The notes under the pieces: model-generated
What the model was told of the DNA's origin: nothing
Databases searched by the model: none
What the model saw: the letters and a program-made list of their open reading frames with translations, nothing else
Origin: Candidatus Desantisbacteria bacterium CG2_30_40_21
GTDB taxonomy: Bacteria > UBA9089 > CG2-30-40-21
Direction of reading: 5' to 3'
NCBI GenBank assembly: GCA_001873945.1
Contig: MNYI01000174.1
Span: forward strand, 1 to 47,684
DNA length: 47,684 nt
Shown here: piece after piece, positions 1-17,848 of the stretch
Position numbering within the stretch: the first letter of the stretch is position 1
Layout: each line of letters starts with the position of its first letter
Translations under genes and position numbers: made by a program

Positions 1-60
1 AACATCCATTCTTCTTCCGGAATAGCAAGATATTTACCCCAATCATCTATGCCCTTAATT

Positions 61-218
61 ATACTCAAGTGGGGCATAAATTGCGTTTTTCGCTGGTCTT
101 AATCAACGATAGCTGTGTTGTTCAGGTTCGCAATAGTACACTATTGCTCACCTTCACGCCTTGCTCTCCTTGATTAATCCTCACCGAAAAAATCGCAATT
201 TATGCCCCACTTGAGTAT
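61..218. mobile_element. MITE-like non-coding palindromic element, family A, copy 1
   Basis: 25-nt terminal inverted repeats ATACTCAAGTGGGGCATAAATTGCG / CGCAATTTATGCCCCACTTGAGTAT. The whole ~158-bp body recurs in opposite orientation at 27199-27428. No ORF. Confidence 0.75.
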
Positions 219-357
219 AAAATATCCTTTACAGGGGTTGCAATTGCAGGAATAATTCAGTCCGATAAATTAAATTTACTTTCGTTTCTTTTAGGCTCAT
301 CCCTTGCAATTATATTTTTCGCTATTGCCTATTGGCTCGAAAGAAAGGAGGATACTC

Positions 358-498
358 ATGAATAACATCACTTTTGTTTTTGATGGACTCTCTGCTGTTT
401 TTCTGAGTTTTATAATTATCGCAGTCACTGGTTGGGCTATTTTGTATTATCAAGAGCGTCGTCAACAGGCTCATAATCTAAGTAAATTCACTCTGTAA
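358..498 (+). CDS. small hypothetical membrane protein (46 aa)
   Basis: ATG at 358 preceded by AAGGAGGA (345-352). One hydrophobic helix LSAVFLSFIIIAVTGWAILYY. No recognisable family. The ORF-track start at 304 is TTG without an RBS. Confidence 0.4.
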   Translation: MNNITFVFDGLSAVFLSFIIIAVTGWAILYYQERRQQAHNLSKFTL

Positions 499-2064
499 TG
501 TGTCAGTATCTGCATAACTCATCACCCTTTCCAGCAAACCCAGCCGCAAATGTGTCTGGTTTTCAAACCTGCCAACCAATGCTTCGCCCTCTTTATCCAG
601 ATCATAGCAAGTGCTGTTTTCTATATCAATTAATACCCCGGGAACCCCTGCATTCCGGAAGATCCCCTGCCTTTTGGCAAAGAATGCCTTGCAACAACAG
701 CCGATGTATGAGCTAACCCCATCTGTTCGGCACTCTTGAAGTGTTGTCCTCAGGTGTTCATAATTCTGTATGGTAATGGGTCTAAGCCCTCGTTGCTCTG
801 CCAGTTCATACGCCTTGCCAATACTGCATCCACCACACCTACTGCACCCCTCTTGATACCGATATTCACACCCCACCAGCTTGGCACAATATGGCAAGAG
901 TAAAACCGATGGTTGTTTCAAGATATCACGGATAGAGCCATTCACGGTGAACAGGTAGTTTGCTTCTTCTAATGGAATGCCCAGAGACGGATATTCCATT
1001 CGTTGCAAAGCAGAAGAAACACAAGCAACAAAATCAGCACCTTGTAGCCCTGACATCTGAGGCTGATTATGCTCGAAAAACCATTCAATTTTTTGTATAA
1101 CCTCAATAATTGGAATATCCTTCAGGATTGCCTCAAGGTCAAATATCGTACGAGACGGCGAAACAAAGAAATCACCGGTAATCAATGCTTGTTTGAGTGC
1201 CATGCGTTTAGTATCTACCACTAAGGATGCCCGAATCAATCCTCCCTTAGCCTTATTTGTTGCCCTCAGGGTCTGCCTGATATCATGGGGTTCTCGCGTT
1301 TCTTCAATCCATTCCCTGGATGCAAATTCAGGACTTCTGTAGTCAAGCACTTGCTGGAGTTTTTCAGGAAGCTCCATCCTCTCAAACCTTATCCCCAGTA
1401 CCTCCTCAAACCCAGCCTGCAATGCCTGTTTGATTATATCCAATGATGGTACAAATCCCAGTTCTTCCTGCAAGCAAGTAACCCGCTGTCTTGCTGAGGC
1501 AAGTTCCTTATCTGCCAATTTCTCTGTCGGGATTCGTAAGGCACGAATCATGGATTCCACATCAAAGTTAACCAATAATGTCCCCTGAAACAATACTGCA
1601 TTATCCTCAAAAATCCCACCTGTGCCGGATATTTTACGGCCGTTGACCTCAATATCGTTACGGGGTCGAAAATTTGCATTAACACCCAATGTCTTCAATC
1701 CTCTGATAACTGCCTCACAGACCAGTTCTGTCACCTTATCCAATCGATAACCAATGTCAGCCTTTGACGCAATCAATTCCCAGCCAAGTTGCGAAGAATC
1801 AAAATATATGGCACCACCGCCGGTAATTCGTCGATTAATATCAATACCCTGTTTGCGGCAAAACTCAAGCCGCACCTCTTGCTCCACAGTCTGATGGTAC
1901 CCTATAAGTACAGCCGACGGTGAGAATTGCATAAATCTGACGGTATTAGGAATGTCACCTTTAGCCCGTGCCTCAAGCAGGATTGAGTCAAGGGTAATAT
2001 TTTCTGCTGCTGTAAGTATGCCTGTATCAAGCAGTTGCCATCTCACCATGGATGTAATCACCAC
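478..2064 (-). CDS. lipoate-protein ligase (LplA catalytic + C-terminal accessory domain) fused to a C-terminal Cys-rich DUF116-like domain
   Basis: N-terminal BPL/LplA/LipB-type sequence with the NGRKISGTGG lysine motif. LplA C-terminal-domain-like segment GGLIRASLVV..ITGDFF. Last ~145 aa carry LLLPYC..C..CSRCGGCSIG..IGCCC, matching my recollection of Pfam DUF116. GTG at 2064; alternative ATG at 2049 behind GGTGGTGA. Confidence 0.8.
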   Translation of the reverse strand: MVITSMVRWQLLDTGILTAAENITLDSILLEARAKGDIPNTVRFMQFSPSAVLIGYHQTVEQEVRLEFCRKQGIDINRRITGGGAIYFDSSQLGWELIASKADIGYRLDKVTELVCEAVIRGLKTLGVNANFRPRNDIEVNGRKISGTGGIFEDNAVLFQGTLLVNFDVESMIRALRIPTEKLADKELASARQRVTCLQEELGFVPSLDIIKQALQAGFEEVLGIRFERMELPEKLQQVLDYRSPEFASREWIEETREPHDIRQTLRATNKAKGGLIRASLVVDTKRMALKQALITGDFFVSPSRTIFDLEAILKDIPIIEVIQKIEWFFEHNQPQMSGLQGADFVACVSSALQRMEYPSLGIPLEEANYLFTVNGSIRDILKQPSVLLLPYCAKLVGCEYRYQEGCSRCGGCSIGKAYELAEQRGLRPITIQNYEHLRTTLQECRTDGVSSYIGCCCKAFFAKRQGIFRNAGVPGVLIDIENSTCYDLDKEGEALVGRFENQTHLRLGLLERVMSYADTDTLQSEFT

Positions 2065-3019
2065 CTATTAATGCACAACACACCTCACTAAACCGCACCT
2101 CAAGCCCCATCTCCTTAGCCATCCCCACAATTCCCTCTGCTGGATAAGCAATACCGTTTAATCCTGCCTTAAGTGCCAGTGTGTCTGTCTTGAATTTATG
2201 TTCGCCCATGGGACGCATACATCCTAACAAAACTGGTGTGAAAGGGAATACCTGTCGGGCGTGCTTAAACACCTCACCCATTTCCGCAGGATCTGGTGGA
2301 ATAACATCAGCCATCGCTGTTCCGATTTGTGGCAATAGACCCACCAGAACAACAGCCGTTACCGGGTACTTAGCAATAATCTCAAGTGCCTGATATTCTC
2401 CCAGAATCTTCCTGTAATGCAACCCAATAACCACATGGGGAATGGTGTGTATTCCATATTCGCACAAGAGTTTGAGTGAATTTTCAAAATCGTTTGTGGT
2501 CACATCCTTCAGATGATAAACCTGCCTGAGGGTTTCATTAGAACCAACAATATCCATCATTGCCCCATCAATTGCCGCAGAATCCCTTATCTCCTGCACG
2601 GTTTCTTCATCCAAAATGCCTAAGTGAGCAACAATTTTGAAGCCAAATTCTTGCTTTATTCGGGCAATGGTGTTCAAGAATGGCTTGATGGGTACTACAC
2701 CCCTTTTATCTGACCCACCACTGATGAGCATCCCTTTTGCCCCATGCCTATTAATTTCTTGAGCGTAATTAAACAATGCTTGTGGCGAGATGGTAGGCTT
2801 CATGGCAGCAAGTATCTTGCGACCGCAGTGGTCACAATTCAATTCACAGCCTGCCCCGGTAATAGACACAGGCATAAAATAACAATGCCCGCAACTTTGA
2901 CAAAATTCCTCAGTTTCATAATGCTTTATCGTTGGGGCAAAGAAAGAGATGCTGTTGCCAAAATTCTGTCGAGCTATGTTCCAACATTTTTCCTCAGTTA
3001 ATTCCTGATCCATTACCAT
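2027..3019 (-). CDS. radical SAM protein, LipS1/LipS2-like (archaeal-type lipoyl synthase component)
   Basis: CELNCDHC (CX3CX2C) radical SAM motif preceded by a second cluster-like motif CQSCGHC. Lies between the lipoate ligase and the DsrC/LbpA genes. Radical SAM assignment is firm; LipS assignment rests on context. Confidence 0.65.
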   Translation of the reverse strand: MVMDQELTEEKCWNIARQNFGNSISFFAPTIKHYETEEFCQSCGHCYFMPVSITGAGCELNCDHCGRKILAAMKPTISPQALFNYAQEINRHGAKGMLISGGSDKRGVVPIKPFLNTIARIKQEFGFKIVAHLGILDEETVQEIRDSAAIDGAMMDIVGSNETLRQVYHLKDVTTNDFENSLKLLCEYGIHTIPHVVIGLHYRKILGEYQALEIIAKYPVTAVVLVGLLPQIGTAMADVIPPDPAEMGEVFKHARQVFPFTPVLLGCMRPMGEHKFKTDTLALKAGLNGIAYPAEGIVGMAKEMGLEVRFSEVCCALIGGDYIHGEMATA

Positions 3020-3397
3020 AGGTGTTACTCCATAAATTCAAGCCAATAAGCACGCCTCCACAACCACCGCAGGGAAAAGATGCAGAAATCCCGGCGATCT
3101 TAAATGCCTGATTATACTGCCCCTGAGGAAAAAGCTCGTGAAAATACCACGCATTACCCTTTTCTTCACCCAACATTTTTTCATCTCCCTGACGATTATC
3201 TTCATCTGGGGTGGATAGCCGTATTCTTGATAATAATTGCGAATGATGCCAATAATATTCCAATGCTCAAGCGTAAGTGTAATTCCGCAACCATTTGCCA
3301 GATATTCAGCTATGCCCTTATTCCACTGGTTCGGGTCTTGCAGAAAGCCGTCTGCATCTGTTTCGTAAGGTTGGCTATTAAGTTCAAAAACCGGCAT
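2994..3397 (-). pseudogene. DsrC/TusE-family protein, reading frame broken in an A6 run (T6 at 3176-3181 on + strand); atypical C-terminus
   Basis: ORF 3038-3397 gives the N-terminal two thirds (DADGFLQDPNQWNKGIAEYLA..LTLEHWNIIGIIRNYYQEYGYPP). ORF 2994-3263 gives the collinear C-terminal part (LGEEKGNAWYFHELFPQGQYNQAFKIAGISASFPCGGCGG). The frames join at ..REMKK|MLGEEKG.. if one A is added or by a -1 shift. Confidence 0.8.
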
Positions 3398-3410
3398 CTG
3401 CCCAACTCCT

Positions 3411-3989
3411 TCAATTGATACTTTTCCTGTAAATCAGCTCCACACCATCGATATGATAATCATTGTGCCACACATCATAACATGAATGGCAGGTAAATAT
3501 TACCTGTTTTGCCTTTAGCCGTTGTATCTCTCCTGAATTATGTTGCTTGCAAACTTCAAATTCCTCATCCAGTCCAAGCCCTTTCAAGACCCTTCCGCAA
3601 CACCATTCCCTGTCTCCAAGCACAGCAAAATCAACCCCATCACGAGACAATTCCTTAACTATGTCCAATGCCGTTTGTTGCGAGGGAATAAGAAACGATT
3701 GTTTGCAGCCCACAAAATAAACTACGGCAGCCCTTTCTTTTTGAGCATATTGGGTAAACCCATTACCCTCCAGCCTTAGCCACAATCCCCTTTCTTCATT
3801 GGGATAACCAAACAGGTTATGGTGTTGATTAGTGATTAGCTTAGCAGTTTCTACCACCTGCGGGTCATGACCATGAGCAGCGACAGCATCTGCAAGACCT
3901 GTCCATTTTCCGTGAACGCCGGAACATACTCCCTTATCACAAAACATACGCTCTTGTAGTCTTCGTTGCAGGATAATTTCTTGCAACAT
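3411..3989 (-). CDS. single-CCG-domain protein, paralogue of the C-terminal half of the 686-aa HdrD-like protein
   Basis: AAVVYFVGC..EWCCG..FTCHSCY forms one complete CCG motif. Collinear with residues around AAVVYFVGCMTSF..EWCCGFP..FNCASCY of ORF 4614-6674. Start overlaps the lbpA stop (TAATG). Confidence 0.75.
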   Translation of the reverse strand: MLQEIILQRRLQERMFCDKGVCSGVHGKWTGLADAVAAHGHDPQVVETAKLITNQHHNLFGYPNEERGLWLRLEGNGFTQYAQKERAAVVYFVGCKQSFLIPSQQTALDIVKELSRDGVDFAVLGDREWCCGRVLKGLGLDEEFEVCKQHNSGEIQRLKAKQVIFTCHSCYDVWHNDYHIDGVELIYRKSIN

Positions 3990-4453
3990 TACTCCTTCTC
4001 CTTCTCCGCAAACAACCCTTCTGCCTCATATTTTTTATAATCTGCCTCAAGCCATGCTGACACCTCTTCCTCACCATGCTTGAGATCAATTATATCTTTC
4101 TGCAAATTACTTGCCTCAATCAGTATCAACCAGCCTGTTCCATAGGAATCAGTATTGATCAGACTTGGGCTGCTCAAGACATCCTGATTGACCTCAAGGA
4201 TAGTGCCATGGACAGGGGATTTCACTGGACCGATATACTTTCCTGCTTCGATCGTACCCAATGCACGACCCTTAGTTACTGTTCCACCAGCGGGCTTAAT
4301 CTTAACATAAGCCACTGTGCCGGCTGCCTTCTGACCAAACTGGTCAATACCACACCGAACCCTGTTTCCTTCCTCAATCCTCAGCCAGACATGATTATCT
4401 GAATTAAAATAATACAAATCACCCGGCATCTCAACATCCTTGTACTTTGCCAT
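3989..4453 (-). CDS. lbpA: GcvH-like lipoate-binding protein (LbpA-type)
   Basis: Glycine-cleavage H-protein fold signature: HVWLRIEEG..CGIDQFGQ..LGTIEAGKYIGPVKSPVHGTILEVN..DSYGTGWL, with the lysine in the lipoylation position. Strong RBS AAGGAGG. No gcvT/gcvP nearby. Confidence 0.85.
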   Translation of the reverse strand: MAKYKDVEMPGDLYYFNSDNHVWLRIEEGNRVRCGIDQFGQKAAGTVAYVKIKPAGGTVTKGRALGTIEAGKYIGPVKSPVHGTILEVNQDVLSSPSLINTDSYGTGWLILIEASNLQKDIIDLKHGEEEVSAWLEADYKKYEAEGLFAEKEKE

Positions 4454-4471
4454 TACTACCTCCTTGTAAAA

Positions 4472-4620
4472 CTAAAAGTGAAAAGTGAAAAACGAAAAGT
4501 GAAAAACGAAAAGTGAAAAGTGAAAAACGAAGTTAAAATCACTTTCCCCTTTTCACTTATTAAAAAATAATTTATGTTTTTACCTTCACTTTTCGTTTTT
4601 CACTTTTCACTTTTCACTTC
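4472..4620. repeat. long imperfect inverted repeat built from tandem heptamers (AAAGTGA / AAAACGA), intercistronic between the HdrD-like gene and lbpA
   Basis: About 8 tandem 7-mers at 4474-4529. The reverse-complement arm CTTCACTTTTCGTTTTTCACTTTTCACTTTTCACTTC lies at 4584-4620. The TGA stop of ORF 4614-6674 lies inside the first unit. Confidence 0.8.
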
Positions 4621-6674
4621 TTCTCCATCCCAGCCGCAAGCACCAACTCAGCCATATCCATAACCTTCACTTTTGAGCCTTTGGCTTTAATAGCATTCTG
4701 AATCATCCGTTTACACTGACCACAAGCTGTGGTAACAATATCTACATGGGACTCATCAAACTCTTCCACCAGACTTCCGGCAATCTTATTGACCAAATCT
4801 GCATTGACCATCTCCAGATCTCCACCACCACCACAGCAGGTGCTAAGCCTTCTATTCAAGGGCAATTCCACATATTCTACCCCCGGGATAGATTTAATGG
4901 CTTTTCTTGGTGGCTCGAATACACCACAGCCCCGTCCCAGATCGCATGGGTCATGATAGGCAACCCTTCCTTTTATTCCACCCAAATTAACCCTTTTGTC
5001 AGCAATCAGCCTATGGATATATTCAACATTGTGAAGGAATTCTACCCCTGGCAAATACTCTTGATACTCATGCTTAAAGGTATGGTAGCAGGAGGCACAA
5101 TTGAAGACAACCTGTTTTGCCTGCATCATCTTTATCACTTCCACATTCTTGTCCCTCAGCCACTGCCATTCCTGAGAAAGCCCCGCTACAATAAGTGGAA
5201 ATCCGCAGCACCATTCATCCTCACCCAAAATGGCAAAATCCTCCCCTGCCTGATACAACAGGTTCAGGTTTGCCTCTGCCACCCCGGAGATAGCCGGGGA
5301 AAATGAGGTCATACACCCAACAAAATAGACAACGGCTGCCTTTTTCTTGTCTGAATAAACCTCAGGGGGCACATCTGAAAACTCAGCCCACATCAATCGG
5401 TCAGCATTGGGATAATTAAGAACATTATGCACCTTCTTTGCTGCACCAAGGGCAATGTTTACTGCATTTGGGGCAATTTTTTCCCTAACTGCATACTCCC
5501 GCATGGAAACCCGCAGGCTTCTGGTATTAATATTTATCGGGCAGACCTCTTTGCACCTGCCGCATAGGGTACAGGTATAAACTTGAGTCGCAAACCAGTC
5601 TTGCGATTCCTTAGTGTGGGGTTCTCTATCTATGAGCGAGCTAAAAAAGCCATACCCCTGCCTCAACCTTTCACTAATTAACGAGATTACCCCGCCTGAA
5701 ACTGCATGTTCTTCTTTAGTATGTTTATAAGCCACACAATGTTCTGCACATATCCCACATTTGATACAGGCATCTATCTCTATTAACTGCCGTTTGGAGA
5801 AGGGGATCTCATCTGCCTGCTTGCTGAAGATATGTTGTTCTGGCGATAATGAATTAACCACCATGGCAATGGGTGCAGTTACAATATGCCACAGCTTGCG
5901 ATTAAACGGAATGGTACCAACCAGAGTACCCAGGAATATACCGGAAAGACACCAGCTTATGATATAAAAATCAGGCCAGTGAAGACCCAACGGGGCAATT
6001 ATTTTAGATAAGACAAAAGCCACAAACCAATAACTGGCAATACTATCCGGCACATTAAAACTCAAAATACTTGTTGCCTCAGCCAGAAACCGTAGAGCAA
6101 ACCAGCCACCAAGGATAATCACGGCAAAGATGTCTGCCTCTTTCATCTTAAACACATACGCCCGTTTGATAAAGCGACGATAAATAAGTATGCCCTCACC
6201 AACTACTAAGATAAGGAAACCAAAGCCATCATTCAGCAAGGCATACAACGCCTGCTGATGGGTAAATGTAGCCTCTGAGACTGTTCGGAAAAAGTAAAAA
6301 TCACAAAATGGGGAATAAAGGAAACGGGTAAGATGAGAAATGCTTTGTAGCTCTGGCATGGAGGAAGCCTTGACATGATTAACCACGATGATGCCGATAT
6401 AACTGACAATGATAGAAACCATGGCCACACCCCGCAGGATGTTTTCCTTAAATAGTCGGCGATGGATAAAGGAATCAAGGATAGCACCAAAGAAATGAAA
6501 GAGCCTTGGGCTAAATATGGCCACAATAATGCTCGTACCAGTGCTGATTATACCCCTACCCATGCCCTTTGTCCAGATATAGAGGTTGTTCAGCAGCCCC
6601 AGGGCAAAAACAAATAGCCCAATCATAAAGGCAGCCGCACAAAATGAATCAAATAATGGATATTGACCTAACAT
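4614..6674 (-). CDS. membrane-anchored HdrD/DsrK-like iron-sulfur oxidoreductase (polytopic membrane domain + 2x[4Fe-4S] ferredoxin motifs + two CCG domains)
   Basis: First ~270 aa contain at least 6 hydrophobic segments. Then CIKCGICAEHC and CTLCGRCKEVCP, followed by VGC..WCCG..NCASC and HDPC..TCCGGGG..TACGQC. RBS GAGGAGA. Confidence 0.8.
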   Translation of the reverse strand: MLGQYPLFDSFCAAAFMIGLFVFALGLLNNLYIWTKGMGRGIISTGTSIIVAIFSPRLFHFFGAILDSFIHRRLFKENILRGVAMVSIIVSYIGIIVVNHVKASSMPELQSISHLTRFLYSPFCDFYFFRTVSEATFTHQQALYALLNDGFGFLILVVGEGILIYRRFIKRAYVFKMKEADIFAVIILGGWFALRFLAEATSILSFNVPDSIASYWFVAFVLSKIIAPLGLHWPDFYIISWCLSGIFLGTLVGTIPFNRKLWHIVTAPIAMVVNSLSPEQHIFSKQADEIPFSKRQLIEIDACIKCGICAEHCVAYKHTKEEHAVSGGVISLISERLRQGYGFFSSLIDREPHTKESQDWFATQVYTCTLCGRCKEVCPININTRSLRVSMREYAVREKIAPNAVNIALGAAKKVHNVLNYPNADRLMWAEFSDVPPEVYSDKKKAAVVYFVGCMTSFSPAISGVAEANLNLLYQAGEDFAILGEDEWCCGFPLIVAGLSQEWQWLRDKNVEVIKMMQAKQVVFNCASCYHTFKHEYQEYLPGVEFLHNVEYIHRLIADKRVNLGGIKGRVAYHDPCDLGRGCGVFEPPRKAIKSIPGVEYVELPLNRRLSTCCGGGGDLEMVNADLVNKIAGSLVEEFDESHVDIVTTACGQCKRMIQNAIKAKGSKVKVMDMAELVLAAGMEKK

Positions 6675-6695
6675 TAGTTTCTCTCCTCATATAAG

Positions 6696-6800
6696 ATGTG
6701 TAAAATACTAATGATTTTTATGATTTAAGTGATTTGGAATGATTAAAAAATAATCATCATAATTACTAAAATCATTCCCAATCATTAGTAACTTACACAT
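6696..6800. repeat. 105-bp near-perfect palindromic element in the tusA / HdrD-like intercistronic gap
   Basis: ATGTGTAAAATACTAATGATT (6696-) pairs with AATCATTAGTAACTTACACAT (-6800). Inner arms are TGATTTGGAATGATT / AATCATTCCCAATCA. Confidence 0.75.
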
Positions 6801-6865
6801 TAAAAAAGCACCCAATTATCCTCGTTGAACACTTCCTGTCTTCTTTGTGTCCTTTGTGGTTCAAT

Positions 6866-7114
6866 TTACGGTTTCATCACGAACACTTCCCAATATCCCT
6901 TATCCTCCAGCCTGACCGACTCCATTTGCAGCCCATTCTTTTCACAAAAGGCTGGAATCTCCTTGGTCACAGACGGTTCAGAATCGCACAATATCTTAAT
7001 CACATTACCAGAGATTAACCCCTTGGTAGCCTTTTTGGTCATAACCAATGGATATGGACATACCCTGCCCAAAACATCAATCTCCTTGACTGGTTCAATC
7101 GTCTTTATATCCAT
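6866..7114 (-). CDS. tusA: TusA/SirA-family sulfur carrier
   Basis: 82 aa with the VLGRVCPYPLV active-site Cys-Pro-x-Pro context. Confidence 0.85.
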   Translation of the reverse strand: MDIKTIEPVKEIDVLGRVCPYPLVMTKKATKGLISGNVIKILCDSEPSVTKEIPAFCEKNGLQMESVRLEDKGYWEVFVMKP

Positions 7115-7151
7115 CTTCTTCTCCTTCTTTTTAATCTGCGTAATCTGCGAA

Positions 7152-7553
7152 TCAAAACCACATCATCTGATCGCATCTTTCCATCTCTTTTTGCACCTCA
7201 TTAAACCCTACCACATTCAAATCAATATCAGCCCCCATATCCCTTGCATTAATCAACCGTTCAGGCTTTATGTCTAAACGGTATAAGTCCTCCTTGCAAA
7301 CCAGCATCCTCATATCAGAAGCCAATTGATTCTTGATATGCTGCTCCGTACTGATAATGCCATAAAATTCCTGTGACCTTTGGTTTTTAATACAATTCAA
7401 TACCCCATCACCCACAAAGGCAACAACCGGCTCAACCTCTTCATCAATATGCATATCAGCCACAAAACAAGCCATGGCATGGGTGATGGCAAGCTTTGGG
7501 TTTTCACTTTTGTATGGAGGTCTTGAGATTACAAACAAAATACTCTTTGCCAT
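7152..7553 (-). CDS. DsrE/DsrF-family protein (DsrF/TusC-like)
   Basis: MAKSILFVISRPPY.. DsrE-fold N-terminus and ..LVCKEDLYRL.. segment. Start moved to the ATG at 7553 behind AAGGAGAA; the longer ORF-track start reads through a hairpin. Confidence 0.7.
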   Translation of the reverse strand: MAKSILFVISRPPYKSENPKLAITHAMACFVADMHIDEEVEPVVAFVGDGVLNCIKNQRSQEFYGIISTEQHIKNQLASDMRMLVCKEDLYRLDIKPERLINARDMGADIDLNVVGFNEVQKEMERCDQMMWF

Positions 7554-7580
7554 ATTATTTTCTCCTTCCTTATCGTTCGC

Positions 7581-7601
7581 GGACAGGGACAAGCCCTGTC
7601 C
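7581..7601 (-). other. intercistronic stem-loop (8-bp GC-rich stem)
   Basis: GGACAGGG acaag CCCTGTCC, immediately after the stop of ORF 7602-7961 and before the RBS of the next gene. Confidence 0.6.
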
Positions 7602-7961
7602 CTACTCTCCCCCTATATGCAATACTCTATCACTTTTAGCTGCCCGTGCCACATACCAATCCATGCTATGGACAGCAATCCCTTCTATTACATCATCTTT
7701 ATGAATTCCCCGAGCCGCAGCACATGCCTCACATGCAACAATTGCTACACCATTTTCTTGTAAAGCCTTCAGCCTCTCTGCCAGATAGGAGTAATCCTTA
7801 AACGACTTTTGTCCCTTTCTGGCTAAAGTAACAGCATTGCCAGAAAACCACAGGTTTACGCTATGCCCTTTATTTACCGCTGTTTCTGCCAGCTTAACGG
7901 CAAAATCAGAATTCATCGAACCAATAAGGGAAGAAAAAAGACCAATGCTTATCGTTGCCAT
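7602..7961 (-). CDS. DsrE/TusD-like sulfurtransferase subunit (Cys-bearing)
   Basis: 119 aa with IVACEACAAARGI, corresponding to the DsrE/TusD active-site cysteine region. Confidence 0.8.
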   Translation of the reverse strand: MATISIGLFSSLIGSMNSDFAVKLAETAVNKGHSVNLWFSGNAVTLARKGQKSFKDYSYLAERLKALQENGVAIVACEACAAARGIHKDDVIEGIAVHSMDWYVARAAKSDRVLHIGGE

Positions 7962-7976
7962 TTTTTTTAGTTAGAA

Positions 7977-8127
7977 GTCAAGAAAAAATAAGTTGTACAC
8001 CAAGAGTCACTGAGTCGTTTGGCTGGCAAAGCGTGAGAAGCGAGCATACTACTGTATGTAAGCGACGAACAACGGAGCCAGCCAAGATGAATCGGTGGCA
8101 CGACTGTATAAGTTATTTTTTCTTGAC
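7977..8127. mobile_element. MITE-like element, family B, copy 1 (intercistronic)
   Basis: TIRs GTCAAGAAAAAATAAGTTGTACA / TGTATAAGTTATTTTTTCTTGAC. Second copy at 36474-36600 shares both ends and the core CTGTATGTAAGCGACGAACAAC..GCCAGCCAAGATG.ATCGGTGGCACGACT. Confidence 0.8.
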
Positions 8128-8137
8128 GACTTACCTC

Positions 8138-8437
8138 CTATAACCAGATTAACTTCTCATAATCATTCATCATCAAATCCACGACATCCTCATAAGTAAC
8201 GACATTTACCCTACTATCTATTTCAGAAGTAGTAAATCCCCTTGTTTGAATATCGGAGGCTAAGGCATAATAATTTACGCCTTTTTTTTGCAACACCCCT
8301 GAATCCCTGCCATTTTCATGGATTACTGCATGATACACACCATTTTCAACGAAAAATATACCAAGCCCTTCACCGTTCAATCTCTCCAGCATACTATCAT
8401 TTTTCTGACAATCACTAACAAATACCCCCAGCCTCAT
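8138..8437 (-). CDS. DsrH/TusB-like protein
   Basis: 99 aa with GIFFVENGVYHAV.. and ..YYALASDIQTRGF.., typical of DsrH/TusB. Confidence 0.7.
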   Translation of the reverse strand: MRLGVFVSDCQKNDSMLERLNGEGLGIFFVENGVYHAVIHENGRDSGVLQKKGVNYYALASDIQTRGFTTSEIDSRVNVVTYEDVVDLMMNDYEKLIWL

Positions 8438-8438
8438 C

Positions 8439-8687
8439 CTACTCCTCCTTTTTGATCAAGAGTCGAAAGGTAGCGTCAGAGTTTTCAATAACCTCAACAG
8501 GATACTTCTTCTTCTGGCAAAAATTAGGAATAGATTCAGTAGCCGCTGGCTTGTAATCAGTTATAACCTCAAGAACCTGACCTGTTTCTATCCCCTTCAA
8601 GGCATCCCTTACCTCCATCACCGTATAAGGACAAATCTTGCCCGTGATGTCTACCACACTATCTATCTTACAACCTGCTAATCCCAT
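8439..8687 (-). CDS. tusA: TusA/SirA-family sulfur carrier
   Basis: 82 aa with DITGKICPYTVMEVRDALK. Confidence 0.85.
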   Translation of the reverse strand: MGLAGCKIDSVVDITGKICPYTVMEVRDALKGIETGQVLEVITDYKPAATESIPNFCQKKKYPVEVIENSDATFRLLIKKEE

Positions 8688-8748
8688 TTATTTTTTACCT
8701 CCATTAAGAAACAGGGGCAGACACAGGAGGCTGCCCATTACCTGCAAT

Positions 8749-8899
8749 GTAACCGTTCACAACTAATAATATTTTAACACAGAGTTTGCAGAGACGACAG
8801 AGGGACACAGAGCTTAAATTCCAATCATCATACGATCTGAGCCGATTGTCCTCTTTCTCTGTGTCCTCTGTGTCAAAAATATAGACTGTGAACGGTTAC
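8749..8899. mobile_element. MITE-like element, family D (intercistronic)
   Basis: TIRs GTAACCGTTCACA / TGTGAACGGTTAC. Internal CACAGAG-type repeats. A half copy lies at 29033-29100. Confidence 0.75.
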
Positions 8900-8906
8900 C
8901 CTACAA

Positions 8907-9164
8907 TCAAGCGAGATTTACCACCTTATTTCCCACAATCAAATCAACTAACTGTGGATAGCCAATGCTCTCAGCCTTTCCAGCCAATCTATCCTTTAAT
9001 CCTCTTGCATGGACATCATCCTCCATGGCATAAACCTTACCATGCATGGTAGAGGGATTAAGATAGACGCCATCCTTAATAAGTACAACCTTTGCATCAC
9101 TATCCATTGCTGATACTGAGGCTGCAATCTCACCATTTGGCTTATCAACTAAATAAAGAGCCAT
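8907..9164 (-). CDS. DsrH/TusB-like protein
   Basis: 85 aa with VVLIKDGVYL.. and ..VYAMEDDVHARGL.. Confidence 0.7.
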   Translation of the reverse strand: MALYLVDKPNGEIAASVSAMDSDAKVVLIKDGVYLNPSTMHGKVYAMEDDVHARGLKDRLAGKAESIGYPQLVDLIVGNKVVNLA

Positions 9165-9177
9165 ATCTGTTCACCTC

Positions 9178-9528
9178 CTACCAATCGAGAATAAATTCAG
9201 CATCACTGTATAATTTATCAGAGTCTGCCCTTGGAATAATACTCATATCCATAGCTATTTCATCCTGAGATACCCCTCTTGCATCTAAGTCTTCCTTGAC
9301 CACGAAGTATTTTACCCCTGCCTTCTTGAGTGTACCCTCATAACCAAGGTTTTCTGCCCTGTCCGCACCCTTCAAGGCATAGTAAACCCCATCACCCTGT
9401 AAGAGCAAGGTTACCTCATGTTCATCAATCCCAGCGGTTGCTCCAACAGCCGCACGCCATCCTTCGGTATAGAAGACATTACCATATGGCGTTCTATTAA
9501 ATTGATAAAGCAATTTTCTTGTTGCCAT
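9178..9528 (-). CDS. DsrF/TusC-like protein
   Basis: 116 aa with LLLQGDGVYYAL.. and ..YFVVKEDLDARGV.., and no active-site Cys, as in TusC/DsrF. Confidence 0.75.
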   Translation of the reverse strand: MATRKLLYQFNRTPYGNVFYTEGWRAAVGATAGIDEHEVTLLLQGDGVYYALKGADRAENLGYEGTLKKAGVKYFVVKEDLDARGVSQDEIAMDMSIIPRADSDKLYSDAEFILDW

Positions 9529-9556
9529 TAATCCTTCACCTCCTTTTCCTTCTCTA

Positions 9557-9916
9557 TTACAGCGTTACCAGCGTATCGCACTCGCCCATAATGTCCGCAA
9601 AGTCCGGCAATCCACCAACCTTGACACCCTCAATAAATTCCTTGCCACCTTCCAGACCTCGTCCATTGACGCAAATACCACAACAGATGATTTTAGCTCC
9701 CTTTTCCACCACCTTCTTTATTCCTGAGACAGGTAGATTTTCCTCTGTTGTTCCAGGAAACTTCTGGTGTTTGATGGGGTTATAGACGCCATCAAGGTAA
9801 AAGAACGCCTGTACCTCATGCCCTTTGTCCAATGCAGCATCAGCTATTTTGGTAAATACCTTGTAGTTTTCCGTCTGCCATGGACCTTCAGTCAGCAACA
9901 TCCCTATTTTTGCCAT
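9557..9916 (-). CDS. DsrE/TusD-like sulfurtransferase subunit (Cys-bearing)
   Basis: 119 aa with KIICCGICVNGRGL active-site region. Confidence 0.8.
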   Translation of the reverse strand: MAKIGMLLTEGPWQTENYKVFTKIADAALDKGHEVQAFFYLDGVYNPIKHQKFPGTTEENLPVSGIKKVVEKGAKIICCGICVNGRGLEGGKEFIEGVKVGGLPDFADIMGECDTLVTL

Positions 9917-9937
9917 ACGATTTCACCTCCTTTTTTC

Positions 9938-10285
9938 TTAAAATCCTATAACCACATCCGCATTCCTGATAATCTGATTGATTTCAGCTCGTGGTCTTGT
10001 AATTATAGCAGAATTATCAACCTTGATCCCCCGATCAATCAATGCCTCTTCCTCAGCCATTAACTCCGCCTCCATCATCAACAAGGTTTCTACATGCTTA
10101 TCAAGCTCCTGATTTTTGGCTGCCTGACAATCCAGAGAGGCTGCGGTCCAGACCCCATCATTTATAAAAAGCACCTGAACCTTATTTTCGTCCTCAATAG
10201 TTAATCCCACAGCACACCTTAATGCTTCAGCATTGCCAATGGTATTAAAGGGCAATGCGTAAATAACAACAGCTATCTTTTTCAT
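9938..10285 (-). CDS. DsrF/TusC-like protein
   Basis: MKKIAVVIYALPF.. DsrE-fold protein without the active-site Cys context. ATG at 10285 lies 1 nt after the upstream stop, with GGAGGG inside the upstream gene end. Confidence 0.65.
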   Translation of the reverse strand: MKKIAVVIYALPFNTIGNAEALRCAVGLTIEDENKVQVLFINDGVWTAASLDCQAAKNQELDKHVETLLMMEAELMAEEEALIDRGIKVDNSAIITRPRAEINQIIRNADVVIGF

Positions 10286-10286
10286 C

Positions 10287-10616
10287 CTACCCTCCAAAGC
10301 TCAAAAATCTATCGCTTTCATTAACCATAACTGCTAACTCATACTGACCAGCATATTTTACCCCAGTCAGGCAATCATCCTCTTCAACCCCGCGTTCCTC
10401 AGCAGTATGTCCGCAAATGGCAAGAAATGCACCCGCATCCCTTAACCCTGCAAACCGGGAAGAAATCTTATTCTTTGCTACCACATTGTAAACCCCATCA
10501 TCCATCATAAACAGGCTTACCTCATGCCCAGCTCCCAGAGCAGCCGTAGCCAGATTAATGACTGTCCCGGCATTCTGGTTCTCTGGACTGGTGGTTAATA
10601 ATATTCCCATTTTCAT
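10287..10616 (-). CDS. DsrE-like sulfurtransferase (Cys-bearing)
   Basis: 109 aa with MKMGILLTTSP.. and ..FLAICGHTAEERGV.. Confidence 0.75.
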   Translation of the reverse strand: MKMGILLTTSPENQNAGTVINLATAALGAGHEVSLFMMDDGVYNVVAKNKISSRFAGLRDAGAFLAICGHTAEERGVEEDDCLTGVKYAGQYELAVMVNESDRFLSFGG

Positions 10617-11053
10617 GATGCAACACCCTCCTTCATAGTTACAATTCCCTCACTTATCCATCTGATAATATCCTCAAGGGTAACATTTTCTGATATATTT
10701 TCTAATTTTTCGGTTATTCTTTCCCAAAGGCTACAGATTATTTCATCTATCATCTGATTGGTCTTTATCTCCTCAGACGGACGAATCTCAATAGGTGCTT
10801 CCACTGCCTCTGCAATCTGTTTAATGGTCACCATTGATGGCAAACCTTTAAGGATATAGCCACCCAATACCCCGCCCCTGACACTCTCCAGCAGCCCGGC
10901 ATGTTTTAACTTATTGAGAATTTGCGATACAAATGGAAAGGAGATATTCTGCCGATGGGCAATATCATTTCCTGTAACAGTGTTACCTTGCCCCTGTACC
11001 GCAATATCAGTCATAATTACAATAGCATAGTGTACCTTAATTGGGAGTTTCAT
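10613..11053 (-). CDS. Rrf2-family transcriptional regulator
   Basis: N-terminal winged-helix typical of Rrf2/IscR/BadM (VHYAIVIMTDIA..ISFPFVSQILNKLKHAGLLESVRG). 4-nt overlap with the next gene. Confidence 0.85.
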   Translation of the reverse strand: MKLPIKVHYAIVIMTDIAVQGQGNTVTGNDIAHRQNISFPFVSQILNKLKHAGLLESVRGGVLGGYILKGLPSMVTIKQIAEAVEAPIEIRPSEEIKTNQMIDEIICSLWERITEKLENISENVTLEDIIRWISEGIVTMKEGVAS

Positions 11054-11104
11054 CCAAAAGCCTTCTTTTGTTGAGCAGTTTACTTATAAATATTTTACTT
11101 ATAT

Positions 11105-11134
11105 ATAATACCATTAATATTACCAATTTGTCAA
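11105..11134 (-). promoter_or_regulatory. sigma70-type promoter for the rrf2/sulfur-relay operon
   Basis: On the minus strand: TTGACA (11134-11129), 18-nt spacer, TATTAT (11110-11105). Confidence 0.5.
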
Positions 11135-11185
11135 ATGAATAATTCTCATATCATTATGATAAAAATTCATACCAAAAAATAATTA

Positions 11186-11214
11186 TTGACAGCATTGCTC
11201 AAGTATGTTATCAT
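11186..11214 (+). promoter_or_regulatory. sigma70-type promoter for the divergent LysR gene
   Basis: TTGACA (11186-11191), 17-nt spacer, TATCAT (11209-11214). Confidence 0.5.
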
Positions 11215-11240
11215 TTGAGATTAAGTGGTATAGGAGGAAA

Positions 11241-12139
11241 ATGATGGATGATTTTACTTTGCGAGTATTTCATAAGATATCTCAATTAAAAAGCTTCTCT
11301 AAGGTGGCTGATGAATTATATATTACACAATCTGCGGTCAGTCGGCAGATAAAGAATTTAGAGGATAAGCTGGTGGTCAAGTTGTGCCTGAGAGAAAAAG
11401 AGGGGATTTCACTCACTGAAGAGGGCAAGATACTGCTTGGCTATGTGGAAAAGATACTGGTTCTTTATGAAAAGGCGAGAAAGGATATAGACCATTTCAG
11501 GCATACCAGTCTGAATAAAATAATTGTTGGCGCCAGTACTGCTTTGGGTGAATATGTCTTACCCAGGATAATCAGTTCCTTTAACAAAAGACACCCTGAG
11601 GCAGATATTTATTTGCGGGTAGCAAATACTGGCGAGATATTGAAGCAATTAACAGCTAATGCCTTTAATTTGGCATTGGTTGAAGGGATGTTTGATACCC
11701 CTGGATTTATTGTGGAAAAGGTATTTGAGGATGAATTGGTGCTTATTGTTTCTGCCAACCACTCATGGACAGAAAAAAACAGATAAATTTTCATGAATTA
11801 CGCTCCGAACCAATCATCATCAGGGAAGAAGGTTCAGGCACAAGAAAGATAATGGTTGAGGCATTAGCTAAGATTGGGGTAGAAATTTCTGATTTAAGGA
11901 TCAGGATGGAACTTGATTCAACAGAAGCGGTTAAGAGTGCGGTTGCCGAAGGGCTTGGTATCTCCTTTGTCTCAAGGTCTACCCTGATTAAAATGTCAGA
12001 AGATATACGAATAGTCCCTATAGCTAACATTGACCTTCATTTTAACTTCAATCTTATCTACAGCCGGGAAAGGGGGCTTACCTCTTTAACCCTTGAGTTG
12101 ATAGAGTGCTTAAAGGAAAGGTTCTCTGGTCTTAATTAA
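11241..12139 (+). pseudogene. LysR-family transcriptional regulator, frame broken in an A7 run (11773-11779)
   Basis: HTH part FSKVADELYITQSAVSRQIKNLE in ORF 11205-11786 (true start ATG 11241 after AGGAGGA). The substrate-binding half ..EPIIIREEGSGTRK.. is in ORF 11765-12139. One extra A gives continuous ..NHSWTEKKQINFHELRSEP.. Confidence 0.85.
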
Positions 12140-12193
12140 CTTTCCTGTTCGTGTACATTAAGAGAAACTTCAGAACTTCCGCAGTTTTAAGCT

Positions 12194-15049: not shown

Positions 15050-16792
15050 ATGAAAAAAACTCACAATTGTGGAGAATTAGGGCTACAAAATATCGGAGAA
15101 GAGGTTATTCTGGTTGGTTGGGTTAATCGCCGAAGGGATCATGGGAAATTAATTTTTATTGATCTAAGAGATAGGGCAGGTATCTCACAGATAGTATTTT
15201 CGCCAGAGGCAGATGATATTGCTCATGCTAAGGCACATGAACTCAGGAGTGAATTCGTTTTAGAGGTCAAGGGACAGGTTTGTGCAAGGCCACATGGTAC
15301 CATAAACCCTGATTTAACCACCGGAGAAATAGAGATACTGGTACATGAATTAACCATTATTAATTCCTCAAAAACGCCACCGTTTTCCATTAGTGATGAG
15401 CTGAATGTCGCCGAAGATGTCAGACTTAAGTACCGTTATCTTGATCTGAGAAGGCCACAGATGCAGAAAAATATATTCTTAAGGCATAAGGTCTACCAGA
15501 TTACAAGACGATTTTTGGATGAAAATGGCTATATTGAGGTGGAAACACCCATGCTTATCAAGAGTACGCCAGAGGGGGCAAGAGACTTTCTGGTGCCAAG
15601 CAGGCTTAGTCCGGGAGAATTTTATGCACTTCCACAATCCCCGCAACTTTTCAAACAAATATTGATGGTAGCCGGGTTTGAAAAATATTTTCAGATTGTT
15701 AAGTGTTTCAGGGATGAAGATTTGCGAGCAGATAGGCAGCCAGAGTTTACACAGGTTGATATTGAGGCTTCCTTTGTAGAGATAGATGATATTTGTAAAT
15801 TAATTGAAGGCTTGCTTTCTTCTGTATTCAAAGAGGGTTTGGGGATAGAGGTCAAAACACCATTCCCAATAATAGATTTTGATGAGGCAATGGCAAGATA
15901 TGGCTCTGATGCACCTGATACACGATTTGGTATGGAATTAACAGATATTACTGATCTGGTTAAGGATGAAGCATGTCAGGTGTTTAATCGGGCAATTGCT
16001 CAGGCAGGTCAGGTAAAGGGCATCTGTGTGCCGGATATGGCCTCCATTAGTCGACGGGATATTGATGAATTAACGAATTTTGTCAATACCTATGGGGCAA
16101 AGGGACTGGCTTATTTTAAGGGCAAGGAGTCACCCATTGCCAAGTTTTTATCTGACGAGGCAAGGGATAAAATCTTAGAGCGGATGAATGCCAAGGAAAA
16201 TGACTTGTGTTTATTTATAGCAGATACACCAAAGATAGTTGCCATGAGCCTCTGTCAGTTAAGGCTGCATCTGGCTAAAAAATTAAACATAATTCCAGAG
16301 GATACATTCAATTTTATCTGGGTAATGAATGCCCCATTATTTGAATATGATGATGAGGAGAAAAGATTTACAGCCATGCATCACCCCTTTACCTCACCGC
16401 GGGAAACAGATTATCCATTGCTTGACATTGATCCGCTCAAGGTCAAGGCAAATGCCTATGATGTGGTACTTAATGGGGTAGAGATTGGCGGTGGCTCTAT
16501 CAGAATTCACCATCGGAATATACAAGAAAAGGTTTTTAGTCTCTTAAACCTTTCTAAAGAAGAGGCTGAAATGAAGTTTAGTTTCCTTTTGGAGGCATTG
16601 GAATATGGTGCACCACCACATGGCGGGGTTGCACTTGGACTTGATAGGTTATTGAGATTTATGGTTGGGGGTGAGTCTATTCGTGATGTTATTGCTTTTC
16701 CCAAGACACAGTCCGGGATATGCCAGATGACCGGAGCCCCATATAAAGTGGAGGATAAGCAATTAAGAGAATTAAAGATACGAGTAGTTTAG
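15050..16792 (+). CDS. aspS: aspartate--tRNA ligase
   Basis: 580 aa bacterial-type AspRS: OB-fold N-terminus, class II motifs (..FRDEDLRADRQPEFTQVD.., ..GGGSIRIH.., ..HGGVALGLDRL..). Confidence 0.95.
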   Translation: MKKTHNCGELGLQNIGEEVILVGWVNRRRDHGKLIFIDLRDRAGISQIVFSPEADDIAHAKAHELRSEFVLEVKGQVCARPHGTINPDLTTGEIEILVHELTIINSSKTPPFSISDELNVAEDVRLKYRYLDLRRPQMQKNIFLRHKVYQITRRFLDENGYIEVETPMLIKSTPEGARDFLVPSRLSPGEFYALPQSPQLFKQILMVAGFEKYFQIVKCFRDEDLRADRQPEFTQVDIEASFVEIDDICKLIEGLLSSVFKEGLGIEVKTPFPIIDFDEAMARYGSDAPDTRFGMELTDITDLVKDEACQVFNRAIAQAGQVKGICVPDMASISRRDIDELTNFVNTYGAKGLAYFKGKESPIAKFLSDEARDKILERMNAKENDLCLFIADTPKIVAMSLCQLRLHLAKKLNIIPEDTFNFIWVMNAPLFEYDDEEKRFTAMHHPFTSPRETDYPLLDIDPLKVKANAYDVVLNGVEIGGGSIRIHHRNIQEKVFSLLNLSKEEAEMKFSFLLEALEYGAPPHGGVALGLDRLLRFMVGGESIRDVIAFPKTQSGICQMTGAPYKVEDKQLRELKIRVV

Positions 16793-16805
16793 GAGGAATA
16801 AAATT

Positions 16806-17072
16806 ATGTGGGTAGAAAAGGCACAATTGCCGGTAATTGTTTTTACAAATATTCATCGCATTGAAGGGAACATGTATACCTATAAGGATGCCAGAATCAT
16901 CGATGAATTAAACGCAGGGGCAAAGGATTTTATTGCTATCACAGATGTTAAAATATATCCGATTGAGAGTGATAGTATGTTGTATAAGACGGATTTTATG
17001 GCTTTGAATAAGAATCATATCAGCCATTTATTACCTCAAGAGGATTTTGTAAAGGAAGAGGAATTGTTCTGA
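16806..17072 (+). CDS. hypothetical small protein co-transcribed with aspS
   Basis: 88 aa, with GGAGGA RBS 13 nt after the aspS stop. No family recognised. Confidence 0.5.
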   Translation: MWVEKAQLPVIVFTNIHRIEGNMYTYKDARIIDELNAGAKDFIAITDVKIYPIESDSMLYKTDFMALNKNHISHLLPQEDFVKEEELF

Positions 17073-17092
17073 GTAATGCGAAAGTGGGAATG

Positions 17093-17143
17093 CAGAATGC
17101 GGAAGTAAAAAGGGTTGCTTATATTTCTGCCTTCCGCATTCTG
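17093..17143 (+). terminator. 13-bp stem hairpin downstream of aspS operon (possible terminator or palindromic repeat)
   Basis: CAGAATGCGGAAG (17093-17105) / CTTCCGCATTCTG (17131-17143), loop 25 nt, no clear T-tract. Confidence 0.35.
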
Positions 17144-17174
17144 AATTATAATCTAAAAGCAAGAGGTATGCAAA

Positions 17175-17378: not shown

Positions 17379-17397
17379 AAGTTCAGGATATTATAGT

Positions 17398-17525: not shown

Positions 17526-17549
17526 AGTCAAGTAAAAGAGAATTTGATT

Positions 17550-17777: not shown

Positions 17778-17794
17778 TTTTGACCAAATATTAC

Positions 17795-17823: not shown

Positions 17824-17848
17824 ATATTAAAGAGGTAATACTTGTTGG

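Follow-up and report, generated by a model that had tools for sequence, protein, structure and literature searches.

A stretch of 47,684 bp from an uncultured groundwater bacterium, Candidatus Desantisbacteria bacterium CG2_30_40_21 (contig MNYI01000174.1, the whole of which is called the window here) carries a minus-strand gene cluster in which a membrane enzyme of the HdrDE/EMO type is encoded beside a GcvH-like lipoyl carrier, together with lipoylation genes and a set of TusA and DsrE/F/H-like sulfur transferases. We give an even chance to the reading that the cluster specifies a menaquinone-linked membrane oxidoreductase acting on its dedicated lipoyl carrier and served by a persulfide relay. 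The families themselves are all known, and their combination is a variant of the sHdr-LbpA theme. No published description of this arrangement was found in the literature, where only sHdr, EMO and Dsr papers matched, in keeping with an earlier note on this DNA that had recognised no described system in it.

The membrane enzyme

The enzyme consists of a NarI-like membrane domain (residues ~1-290), two CX2CX2CX3C cubane motifs and two complete CCG domains with 10 Cys. Its close relatives are 64-82% identical and a large further set lies at ~40%; almost all are metagenomic. For an AlphaFold2 model built with 52 sequences (pLDDT 87.9, pTM 0.87), the best Foldseek match, over the full length, was EtfD of M. 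smegmatis (9OJN; E 1e-23, TM 0.71), with HdrB chains next.

EtfD and EMO are reported to do no more than transfer electrons, their substrate site being closed by a His and one of the Cys being missing; heterodisulfide reductases retain the ten Cys and an open site (PMC13083937, bioRxiv 2026.08.18.745454). Residue alignment with EtfD places C490 of the window enzyme at T539 and S528 at the blocking H583. The CCG cysteines (C454, C489, C490, C526, C529, C577, C613, C614, C651, C654) and the eight cubane Cys are invariant, and the ten Cys with Ser528 are invariant or nearly so in the 52 relatives and in loci at 30-42% identity; neither the blocking His nor the replaced Cys is found in the enzyme or in any relative checked. 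The full ten-Cys set without a blocking His makes a catalytic thiol/disulfide site likely, and by its sequence the enzyme is one of EMO/EtfD architecture with an HdrD/HdrB catalytic signature.

It resembles EMO/EtfD (9OJN; S. aciditrophicus EMO) in being one chain with a NarI-like domain, two cubane clusters and two CCG domains, and in conserving the proximal heme ligands (H100, H263). It differs in its low identity (~20%), in the absence of etfAB neighbours, and in having Cys for Thr and Ser for the site-blocking His. With the HdrDE of methanogens it shares a cytochrome b anchor, two cubane clusters and a ten-Cys double-CCG domain, and a thiol/disulfide substrate would be expected for both. 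Unlike HdrDE it is a fusion of the subunits, is bacterial and menaquinone-based, and has no CoM/CoB genes; its presumed substrate would be a protein-bound dithiol, and a single heme is probable for the window's clade. The window showed no methanogenesis genes.

The membrane domain of the enzyme is uncommon: in a set of 1.84 billion proteins, 54 cluster representatives matched it at E<=1e-3, and its distant relatives match the NarI family PF02665. In a weak alignment of its profile with NarI, the proximal heme ligand H205 corresponds to H263 and the distal ligand H187 to Ser or Gly; family-wide, only H100 and H263 are conserved in this domain. The window's clade seems to keep the proximal heme only, as does EtfD, which has a single proximal heme where Syntrophus EMO has three hemes (PMC13083937, bioRxiv 2026.08.18.745454). 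Related loci, found from annotated contigs and by tblastn mapping, are labelled L001-L055, with taxonomy as in the titles of the metagenome-assembled genomes (MAGs) and in cluster names; a scan of a genome collection yielded 6 loci. Where the window's clade has Ser at the H187 position, a His stands in the enzymes of L042 (6998-9118), L043 (5316-7436), L055 (7220-8962) and L012 (2317-3978), so the anchor may bind two hemes in certain lineages and one in others.

The earlier note had called this protein HdrD-like, an identity that stands in the form of an HdrDE/EMO-type fusion with the full catalytic Cys set. A LutA/GlpC/lactate-type enzyme is ruled out: those models score far under their cut-offs, and over its full length the fold matches EtfD. 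Neither is it a DsrK by the NCBIfam equivalog model, which gives 81.9 bits against a cut-off of 400.

The lipoyl carrier and its dedicated lipoylation genes

The carrier has K72 in an EAGK motif, the lipoylatable lysine named in the earlier note; this residue aligns with the lipoyl-Lys of solved GcvH structures and is conserved in 17 of 17 aligned carriers, orthologues included. Carrier orthologues that adjoin the enzyme also keep an acidic C-terminal tail (…EADYKKYEEEGLFAE). A role in glycine cleavage or in a 2-oxoacid dehydrogenase at this locus is ruled out, there being no T, P, L, E1 or E2 genes in the window or the related loci.

The lipoate-protein ligase and DUF116, a Cys-rich domain of unknown function, form one protein. 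The same fusion is found in L001 (17336-18889), L003 (17344-18885), L009 and L020, and its retention in distant relatives hints at a role for DUF116 in lipoate assembly. The cluster does not end at 478, where the earlier note had placed its boundary: an identical Joint Genome Institute contig (L006) continues leftward with a LipT-like gene of the GG-reductase (GGR) family and then a LipS2-like radical SAM gene. The LipT-like protein scores over its subfamily cut-off; LipS2 is the best match of the other, at 208 bits, under the cut-off of 270. The dedicated lipoylation set of the sHdr-LbpA type, namely sLpl(AB), LipS1, LipS2 and LipT, is present here. Private lipoylation genes, as proposed for the cluster, are thus borne out, with LplA domains and a LipS1 over its cut-off inside the original boundary and the LipT- and LipS2-like genes beyond it.

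That lipoylation genes always accompany the module, that the LplA-DUF116 fusion is conserved, and that the module has ThiF-like E1 genes as neighbours in L013 and L055 would also fit a cofactor-assembly unit, in which the relay gives sulfur to LipS1/LipS2 for the lipoate of the carrier and the enzyme supplies or removes reducing equivalents. We hold this to be the least probable of the readings considered. Stoichiometric cofactor insertion would hardly call for a respiratory-type membrane enzyme and as many as three DsrEFH-like sets, the lipoylation genes of L014 lie ~9 kb from its TusA-enzyme-carrier-CCG core, and known LipS1/LipS2 systems function without such a relay (PMC10332631).

Conservation of the gene neighbourhood

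A search for a conserved gene arrangement found many independent occurrences of the set. DsrE_b-DsrF_b-DsrH_b-TusA, the membrane enzyme, the GcvH-like carrier and the lipoylation genes are found together in ~16 distinct loci, on Desantisbacteria-like contigs, in MAGs labelled Desulfobacteraceae/Desulfobacterales, in a deep-mine MAG and in two Chloroflexota MAGs (enzyme 36-42% and carrier 50-57% identical); a metagenome scan added L020, L042, L043, L045, L047 and L055. The order is changed in L020, L042 and L043, to enzyme-TusA-carrier-DsrEFH-LplA, and survival of the gene set through rearrangement argues for a functional link. Spacing is tight in L014, where the gaps along TusA/enzyme/carrier/CCG are 5, 3 and 0 nt. 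A carrier gene with the conserved lysine stands beside the enzyme in every close relative that has sequence on that side, and in many distant ones. No HdrA-like flavoprotein, ETF or DsrAB gene was found in the ~16 loci with the DsrEFH-TusA-enzyme-carrier set, and no annotated locus has ETF, sHdrA or DsrAB genes.

Many relatives have additions to this set: a second LplA, three tiny DsrEFH-like genes, an HdrB-like/HdrC-like pair and a second, two-Cys carrier. In place of the HdrB-/HdrC-like pair and the extra genes, the window version has the single-CCG protein and the dsrC-like gene. Farther out, at ~40% enzyme identity, a GcvH-like gene lies immediately downstream in L019 and nearby, in an organic-acid context, in L007; in L017 a membrane enzyme of 38% identity has as neighbours HdrA/B/C-like genes, LplA and two GcvH-like genes.

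L013 is flanked by genes for NrfD, a histidine kinase, YceI and ThiF. ThiF-family E1-like genes adjoin the module in this locus (16214-17140, Chloroflexia MAG) and in L055 (4764-5567, metagenome).

Relation to the sHdr-LbpA pathway

Described sHdr clusters are of type I (shdrC1B1AHC2B2) or type II (shdrC1B1AHB3-etfAB-emo), and since a membrane EMO is encoded with LbpA in type II, the coupling of LbpA-dependent sulfur metabolism to quinone is an existing proposal (PMC11094781). The earlier note had suggested an undescribed lipoate-dependent system wired to the membrane and possibly coupled to quinone. The catalytic Cys set, the lysine and the conserved arrangement speak for such a system, while its novelty is reduced by the type II precedent.

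The likeness to sHdr-LbpA extends to a GcvH-like carrier with its own sLpl(AB)/LipS1/LipS2/LipT, to TusA and DsrE-family transferases, to CCG proteins and, for type II, to inclusion of a membrane HdrD-like protein. The differences are several. The cluster lacks sHdrA, sHdrB1/C1 and EtfAB; it has DsrE/F/H-like triads where DsrE3 trimers are described for sHdr; its carrier has no C-terminal Cys and a variable Cys34; its only large redox enzyme is membrane-bound; and some lineages of the module have a CCG-DsrC fusion. No sHdrA flavoprotein, sHdrB1 or sHdrC1 gene was found in the window, in L006 or in the module-bearing related loci. The wider absence claimed by the earlier note (sHdrA, separate HdrB/HdrC, DsrAB, GcvT/P and E1/E2 genes) holds for the window and for the adjoining sequence of L006.

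The window enzyme might nevertheless be the EMO of a split sHdr-type system, with sHdrA/B1/C1 and perhaps EtfAB elsewhere in the genome. The type II operon, which sits with LbpA, TusA, DsrE and lipoylation genes (PMC11094781), gives this reading its model; L017, with its HdrA/B/C-like genes, two GcvH-like genes and LplA, and the loci that add an HdrB-/HdrC-like pair and a second two-Cys LbpA (L001-L005, L020, L042) fit it as well. It is hard to reconcile with ~16 module loci free of any HdrA-like flavoprotein or ETF gene, with a published survey that scored sHdr absent in 3/3 Desantisbacteria genomes, and with a catalytic-type Cys set unlike that of characterised EMO/EtfD. A split system is unlikely, in our estimate, though the likeliest of the alternatives.

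The proposed persulfide relay and the DsrC-like gene

The relay comprises three DsrE-type, three DsrF/TusC-like and two DsrH/TusB-like proteins and two TusA (CPYT, CPYP), in sets labelled a, b and c (Table 1). All three DsrE-type proteins have a Cys at the TusD-Cys78 position by motif reading. For DsrE_b, whose best solved relative is A. vinosum DsrE (2HY5_A), the Cys was placed on TusD Cys78 by alignment via 2D1P. Orthologues of DsrE_b in the related loci are 57-87% identical, and those of the core TusA, which adjoin the membrane enzyme, 54-74%; a pair homologous to set a was found after LipS2 in L013. The expanded TusA/DsrE relay of the earlier note is real in its gene content, and the conserved core is one DsrEFH-like set with one TusA, the other sets being lineage-specific additions.

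In its E-F-H triads beside TusA and its Cys at the TusD/DsrE Cys78 position, the relay is like TusBCD and the TusA-DsrEFH-DsrC relay of rDsr oxidisers. Unlike those, it has no rDsrAB neighbours, and most of its subunits are far under equivalog cut-offs: the DsrE and DsrF subunits score 22-34 bits against 89-94, and DsrH_c alone passes (51.6 against 49.2). Two published dsr surveys scored Desantisbacteria as without DsrEFH, and a lipoate-assembly survey gave the phylum (3 genomes) LipA/LipB/LipM and no LplA, LipS1/LipS2, sHdr or LbpA. Set against the clear LipS1, LplA and DsrEFH-like genes found here, these absences indicate that divergent copies escape current survey models.

A DsrC homologue had also been counted in the relay. 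A DsrC-family gene is present, but it is frameshifted and outside the conserved core, being found in 2 of the ~16 loci, and the analogy to DsrC as substrate is therefore weak. The frame changes at an A6 run (~3178-3183), and the 0-frame product of 119 aa lacks the conserved C-terminal arm. This product recurs in at least 5 MAG records and >40 contigs, so the frameshift cannot be put down to a single faulty assembly. Slippage by -1 at the run, or an A7 transcript, would restore …EMKKMLGEEKGNAWYFHELFPQGQYNQAFKIAGISASFPCGGCGG…; RNA folding downstream of it found no stimulatory structure for programmed -1 frameshifting (z 0.23). The DsrC-like protein has Phe or Tyr at CysB; it keeps a CysA-like spacing, followed by GGCGG and an extension, and has no penultimate-Cys end. 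In the 82%-identical locus L016 (7288-8313), CCG and DsrC form one in-frame 341-aa fusion whose arm ends …KIAGVPMPDSTCGCEAS… and in which a non-cubane-cluster domain and a DsrC-family carrier are naturally joined.

The cluster as a whole is like DsrMK(JOP)/DsrC in combining a membrane CCG enzyme, a small protein-bound sulfur/thiol carrier and the quinone pool, and in having a DsrC-family gene. It is unlike it in that DsrK has a single non-cubane cluster, and in that the DsrC-like gene is frameshifted, encodes neither CysB nor the penultimate-Cys end, and is missing from most loci.

Proposed mechanism and its alternatives

In the favoured reading, the cluster specifies a module complete in itself, whose enzyme would interconvert the dithiol and the disulfide (or sulfane-loaded) forms of the lipoyl arm of the neighbouring carrier and exchange two electrons with menaquinone. 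The carrier would be lipoylated by the private pathway of sLpl(AB)-DUF116, LipS1, LipT and LipS2, and TusA with the DsrEFH-like transferases would pass persulfide sulfur to or from it. The potential of lipoamide is ~ -290 mV and that of menaquinone ~ -74 mV. Given these textbook potentials, which make electron flow from dihydrolipoamide to menaquinone exergonic, and the apparently single proximal heme, the direction from dihydrolipoyl carrier to menaquinone would be favoured; if the clade keeps only the proximal heme, as it seems to, no proton-motive coupling is expected. The sequences show the domain content, the cofactor motifs, the lipoyl-lysine position and the conserved neighbourhood of the module; its substrate, quinone, direction and sulfur chemistry we infer.

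A more specific scheme is also conceivable. Sulfide would attack the lipoyl disulfide, the sulfane sulfur would be handed to TusA/DsrEFH-like proteins, and the enzyme would re-oxidise the dihydrolipoyl arm. The oxidised sulfide or sulfane sulfur would leave the arm as a protein persulfide, and the relay could feed DsrAB/DsrL elsewhere in the genome, or biosynthetic sinks. This sulfide-oxidising scheme is less likely than the general model. That this HdrDE-type enzyme is the first membrane-bound lipoyl-protein:menaquinone oxidoreductase, with the lipoylated carrier as its swinging arm for two electrons and sulfur, oxidising sulfide or sulfane sulfur on the lipoyl dithiol and sending electrons to the quinone pool and sulfur to the TusA/DsrEFH-like relay, is possible but doubtful. 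On this bolder reading a function like that of sulfide:quinone oxidoreductase would have been built from unrelated parts, and several anaerobic phyla would share a minimal, HdrA-free form of Hdr-like sulfur metabolism.

Several observations weigh against a lipoyl-protein:menaquinone oxidoreductase. Adjacency alone does not prove an enzyme-substrate relation, and the heme number and quinone use of the enzyme are themselves predictions. LbpA has two strictly conserved Cys, one N-terminal and one C-terminal (Cao et al. 2018). The C-terminal one is absent from the carrier and from the aligned orthologues beside the enzyme, and the N-terminal one (Cys34) is not conserved, being Ile or Val in some orthologues. 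A second carrier with both canonical cysteines occurs in L001, L003, L009 and L020. As judged from these residues, the carrier of the cluster is an LbpA-like protein of a distinct subtype and not canonical LbpA. GcvH-like genes are found near soluble HdrD-like genes in 18 of 39 loci, and the pairing is therefore not confined to membrane-bound enzymes. The lipoate-assembly survey, whose LipS1 and LplA absences conflict with the window, offers weak evidence in its negatives.

A further point is a subclade at ~41% (L021-L031, e.g. L024 7001-9028) whose enzyme stands alone with all cofactor motifs kept; no GcvH-like, lipoylation, sulfur-relay or ETF genes were found near these enzymes. Such a solitary form, with the best structural match to EtfD and the same domain order, suits an ordinary EMO/EtfD-like conduit from a flavoprotein to menaquinone, for which the sulfur and lipoate neighbourhood would have no mechanistic meaning. 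A conduit of this kind would hardly explain why the gene set is kept through rearrangement, why no annotated locus has etfAB, or why the blocking His and lost Cys that mark EMO/EtfD are absent, and we regard it as very improbable.

Finally, published surveys list the same genome with a reductive-type DsrA (OIP40279) and DsrL-2 (OIP40282, AUJ95_04735) and propose sulfite/sulfate reduction for CG2_30_40_21. The dsrAB genes are in the genome but outside this operon, and with dsrL they could be where the relay really delivers or draws its sulfur. One may then suppose that a TusA -> DsrEFH-like -> DsrC-like relay serves these proteins, that the enzyme, as an analogue of DsrMK, has the DsrC-like protein as its substrate, and that the lipoyl carrier is secondary. 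The DsrC-family gene in the cluster, fused to CCG in L016, and the relationship of DsrE_b to A. vinosum DsrE agree with this. The constant neighbour of the enzyme, however, is the carrier and not DsrC, whose homologue is so rare, frameshifted and short of CysB and the penultimate-Cys terminus; the DsrK model reaches 82 bits where 400 are needed; and DsrK uses one non-cubane cluster where the window enzyme has two full sets. We consider a relay serving DsrAB/DsrL improbable.

Cluster organisation and regulation

An open reading frame (ORF) scan of window positions 1-13000 gave 17 consecutive minus-strand ORFs from 11053 to 478 (Table 1), and profiles of Pfam and NCBIfam upheld the assignment of all of them. 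The one-strand cluster and the domain content read from the letters alone were therefore right, as were all the junctions quoted: a 1-base overlap of the carrier gene (3989-4453) and the CCG gene (3411-3989) at TAATG, a 4-nt overlap between rrf2 (10613-11053) and dsrE (10287-10616), and a single nt (10286) between the stop of that dsrE and the ATG of the next gene.

Table 1. Features of the cluster in the order of transcription, with the evidence for each
Feature	Position	Strand	Evidence and remarks
Source			Candidatus Desantisbacteria bacterium CG2_30_40_21; window locus tags ~AUJ95_06395-06455
Promoter-like site	11105..11134	-	TTGACA-18-TATTAT with TG, upstream of rrf2; 11/12 matches, consensus match only
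Rrf2-family regulator	10613..11053	-	Pfam Rrf2 E 5.8e-28; first gene of cluster
DsrE-type, set a	10287..10616	-	Motif LAICGHTAEERGV; Pfam DsrE E 3.1e-18; TusD/DsrE model 28 bits, under cut-off
DsrF/TusC-like, set a	9938..10285	-	Pfam DsrE family; TusC/DsrF model 30 bits, under cut-off
DsrE-type, set b (core)	9557..9916	-	Pfam DsrE E 3e-20
DsrF/TusC-like, set b (core)	9178..9528	-	Profile matches; orthologues in all related loci
DsrH/TusB-like, set b (core)	8907..9164	-	Pfam DsrH E 4.8e-11; orthologues in related loci
Long hairpin	8688..8906	-	RNA fold -79.3 kcal/mol, z -6.1; gap far shorter in L016
TusA (CPYT), core copy	8439..8687	-	Pfam TusA E 2e-19
DsrH/TusB-like, set c	8138..8437	-	TusB/DsrH model 51.6 bits, over cut-off 49.2
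Long hairpin	7962..8137	-	RNA fold -51.6 kcal/mol, z -5.4
DsrE-type, set c	7602..7961	-	Motif IVACEACAAARGI; Pfam DsrE E 1.2e-17; orthologue in L011
DsrF/TusC-like, set c	7152..7592	-	Probable start internal ATG 7553; Pfam DsrE family E 3.5e-9; orthologues in L008, L011
TusA (CPYP), second copy	6866..7114	-	Pfam TusA E 3e-18
Long hairpin	6675..6865	-	Inverted repeats I4, I5, I11; RNA fold z -4.3
Membrane HdrDE/EMO-type enzyme, 686 aa	4614..6674	-	Pfam Fer4_8 and two CCG domains
Hairpin of heptamer repeats (AAGTGAA/AAACGAA)	4454..4613	-	RNA fold -59.2 kcal/mol, z -7.4
GcvH-like lipoyl carrier (LbpA-like, 'type A')	3989..4453	-	Pfam GCV_H E 1.8e-29
Single-CCG protein (half of HdrB-like domain)	3411..3989	-	Pfam CCG E 7.5e-8; also in L008, L014
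dsrC/tusE-like gene, frameshifted	2994..3397	-	Pfam DsrC in two frames; C-terminal arm (…KIAGISASFPCGGCGG…) in -1 frame
LipS1-type radical SAM lipoyl synthase	2027..3019	-	NCBIfam LipS1 243 bits, cut-off 230
Lipoate-protein ligase (LplA large and small domains) fused to DUF116	478..2064	-	Pfam LplA-B_cat E 2.4e-49, DUF116 E 1.6e-10; NCBIfam LplB domain

The Rrf2 protein, over the cut-off of the NCBIfam rrf2_super model and under those of the IscR and CymR models, has one Cys only and is without the IscR-type cluster motif; rrf2 genes lie upstream of the module in L011 and L012 too. Divergent from the cluster, on the plus strand, the gene of a LysR-type regulator (11205-12139) falls into two ORFs of 193 and 124 aa that overlap, and is apparently frameshifted.

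Palindromic elements had been noticed in the wider gaps of the cluster, and all four gaps >100 nt do fold into long hairpins (z -4.3 to -7.4). At three of the four junctions the close relatives have gaps of 3-99 nt, while one gap in L016 is of 173 nt; the TusA-to-enzyme gap, a hairpin here, is of 5 nt in L014. Conserved regulatory elements are ruled out by these short gaps, and the hairpins look like lineage-specific palindromic inserts. Heptamer units (AAGTGAA/AAGTTAA) of the 4476-4619 hairpin recur at 24421-24462, where they encode a KSEKLKVKSEEL stretch inside an aminodeoxychorismate-synthase-like ORF (23847-25313).

Beyond the LipT- and LipS2-like genes, L006 has at 16726-22061 a convergent group of Thi4, a TauE/SafE-family exporter, a third TusA, a JAB peptidase and a PALP enzyme, a second sulfur-carrier-type set adjoining the cluster. 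The remainder of the window is housekeeping: aspartyl-tRNA synthetase (AspRS), pyruvate:ferredoxin oxidoreductase, RND efflux and others.

Implications

Protein-bound lipoate is a cofactor of soluble multienzyme complexes and, since 2018, also of cytoplasmic sHdr sulfur oxidation, from which the exit of electrons is still debated. If the favoured reading is true, there would be a simple route from lipoate-borne sulfur chemistry to the quinone pool that needs neither HdrA nor ETF. The HdrDE/EMO family would gain a third function besides heterodisulfide reduction and ETF oxidation. The scoring of genome surveys would change as well. A published survey has ~100 Desulfobacterota genomes with LipS1/S2 and without sHdr; these, and the DsrEFH-like, LipS1 and LbpA-like genes of Desantisbacteria, now fall outside published categories.

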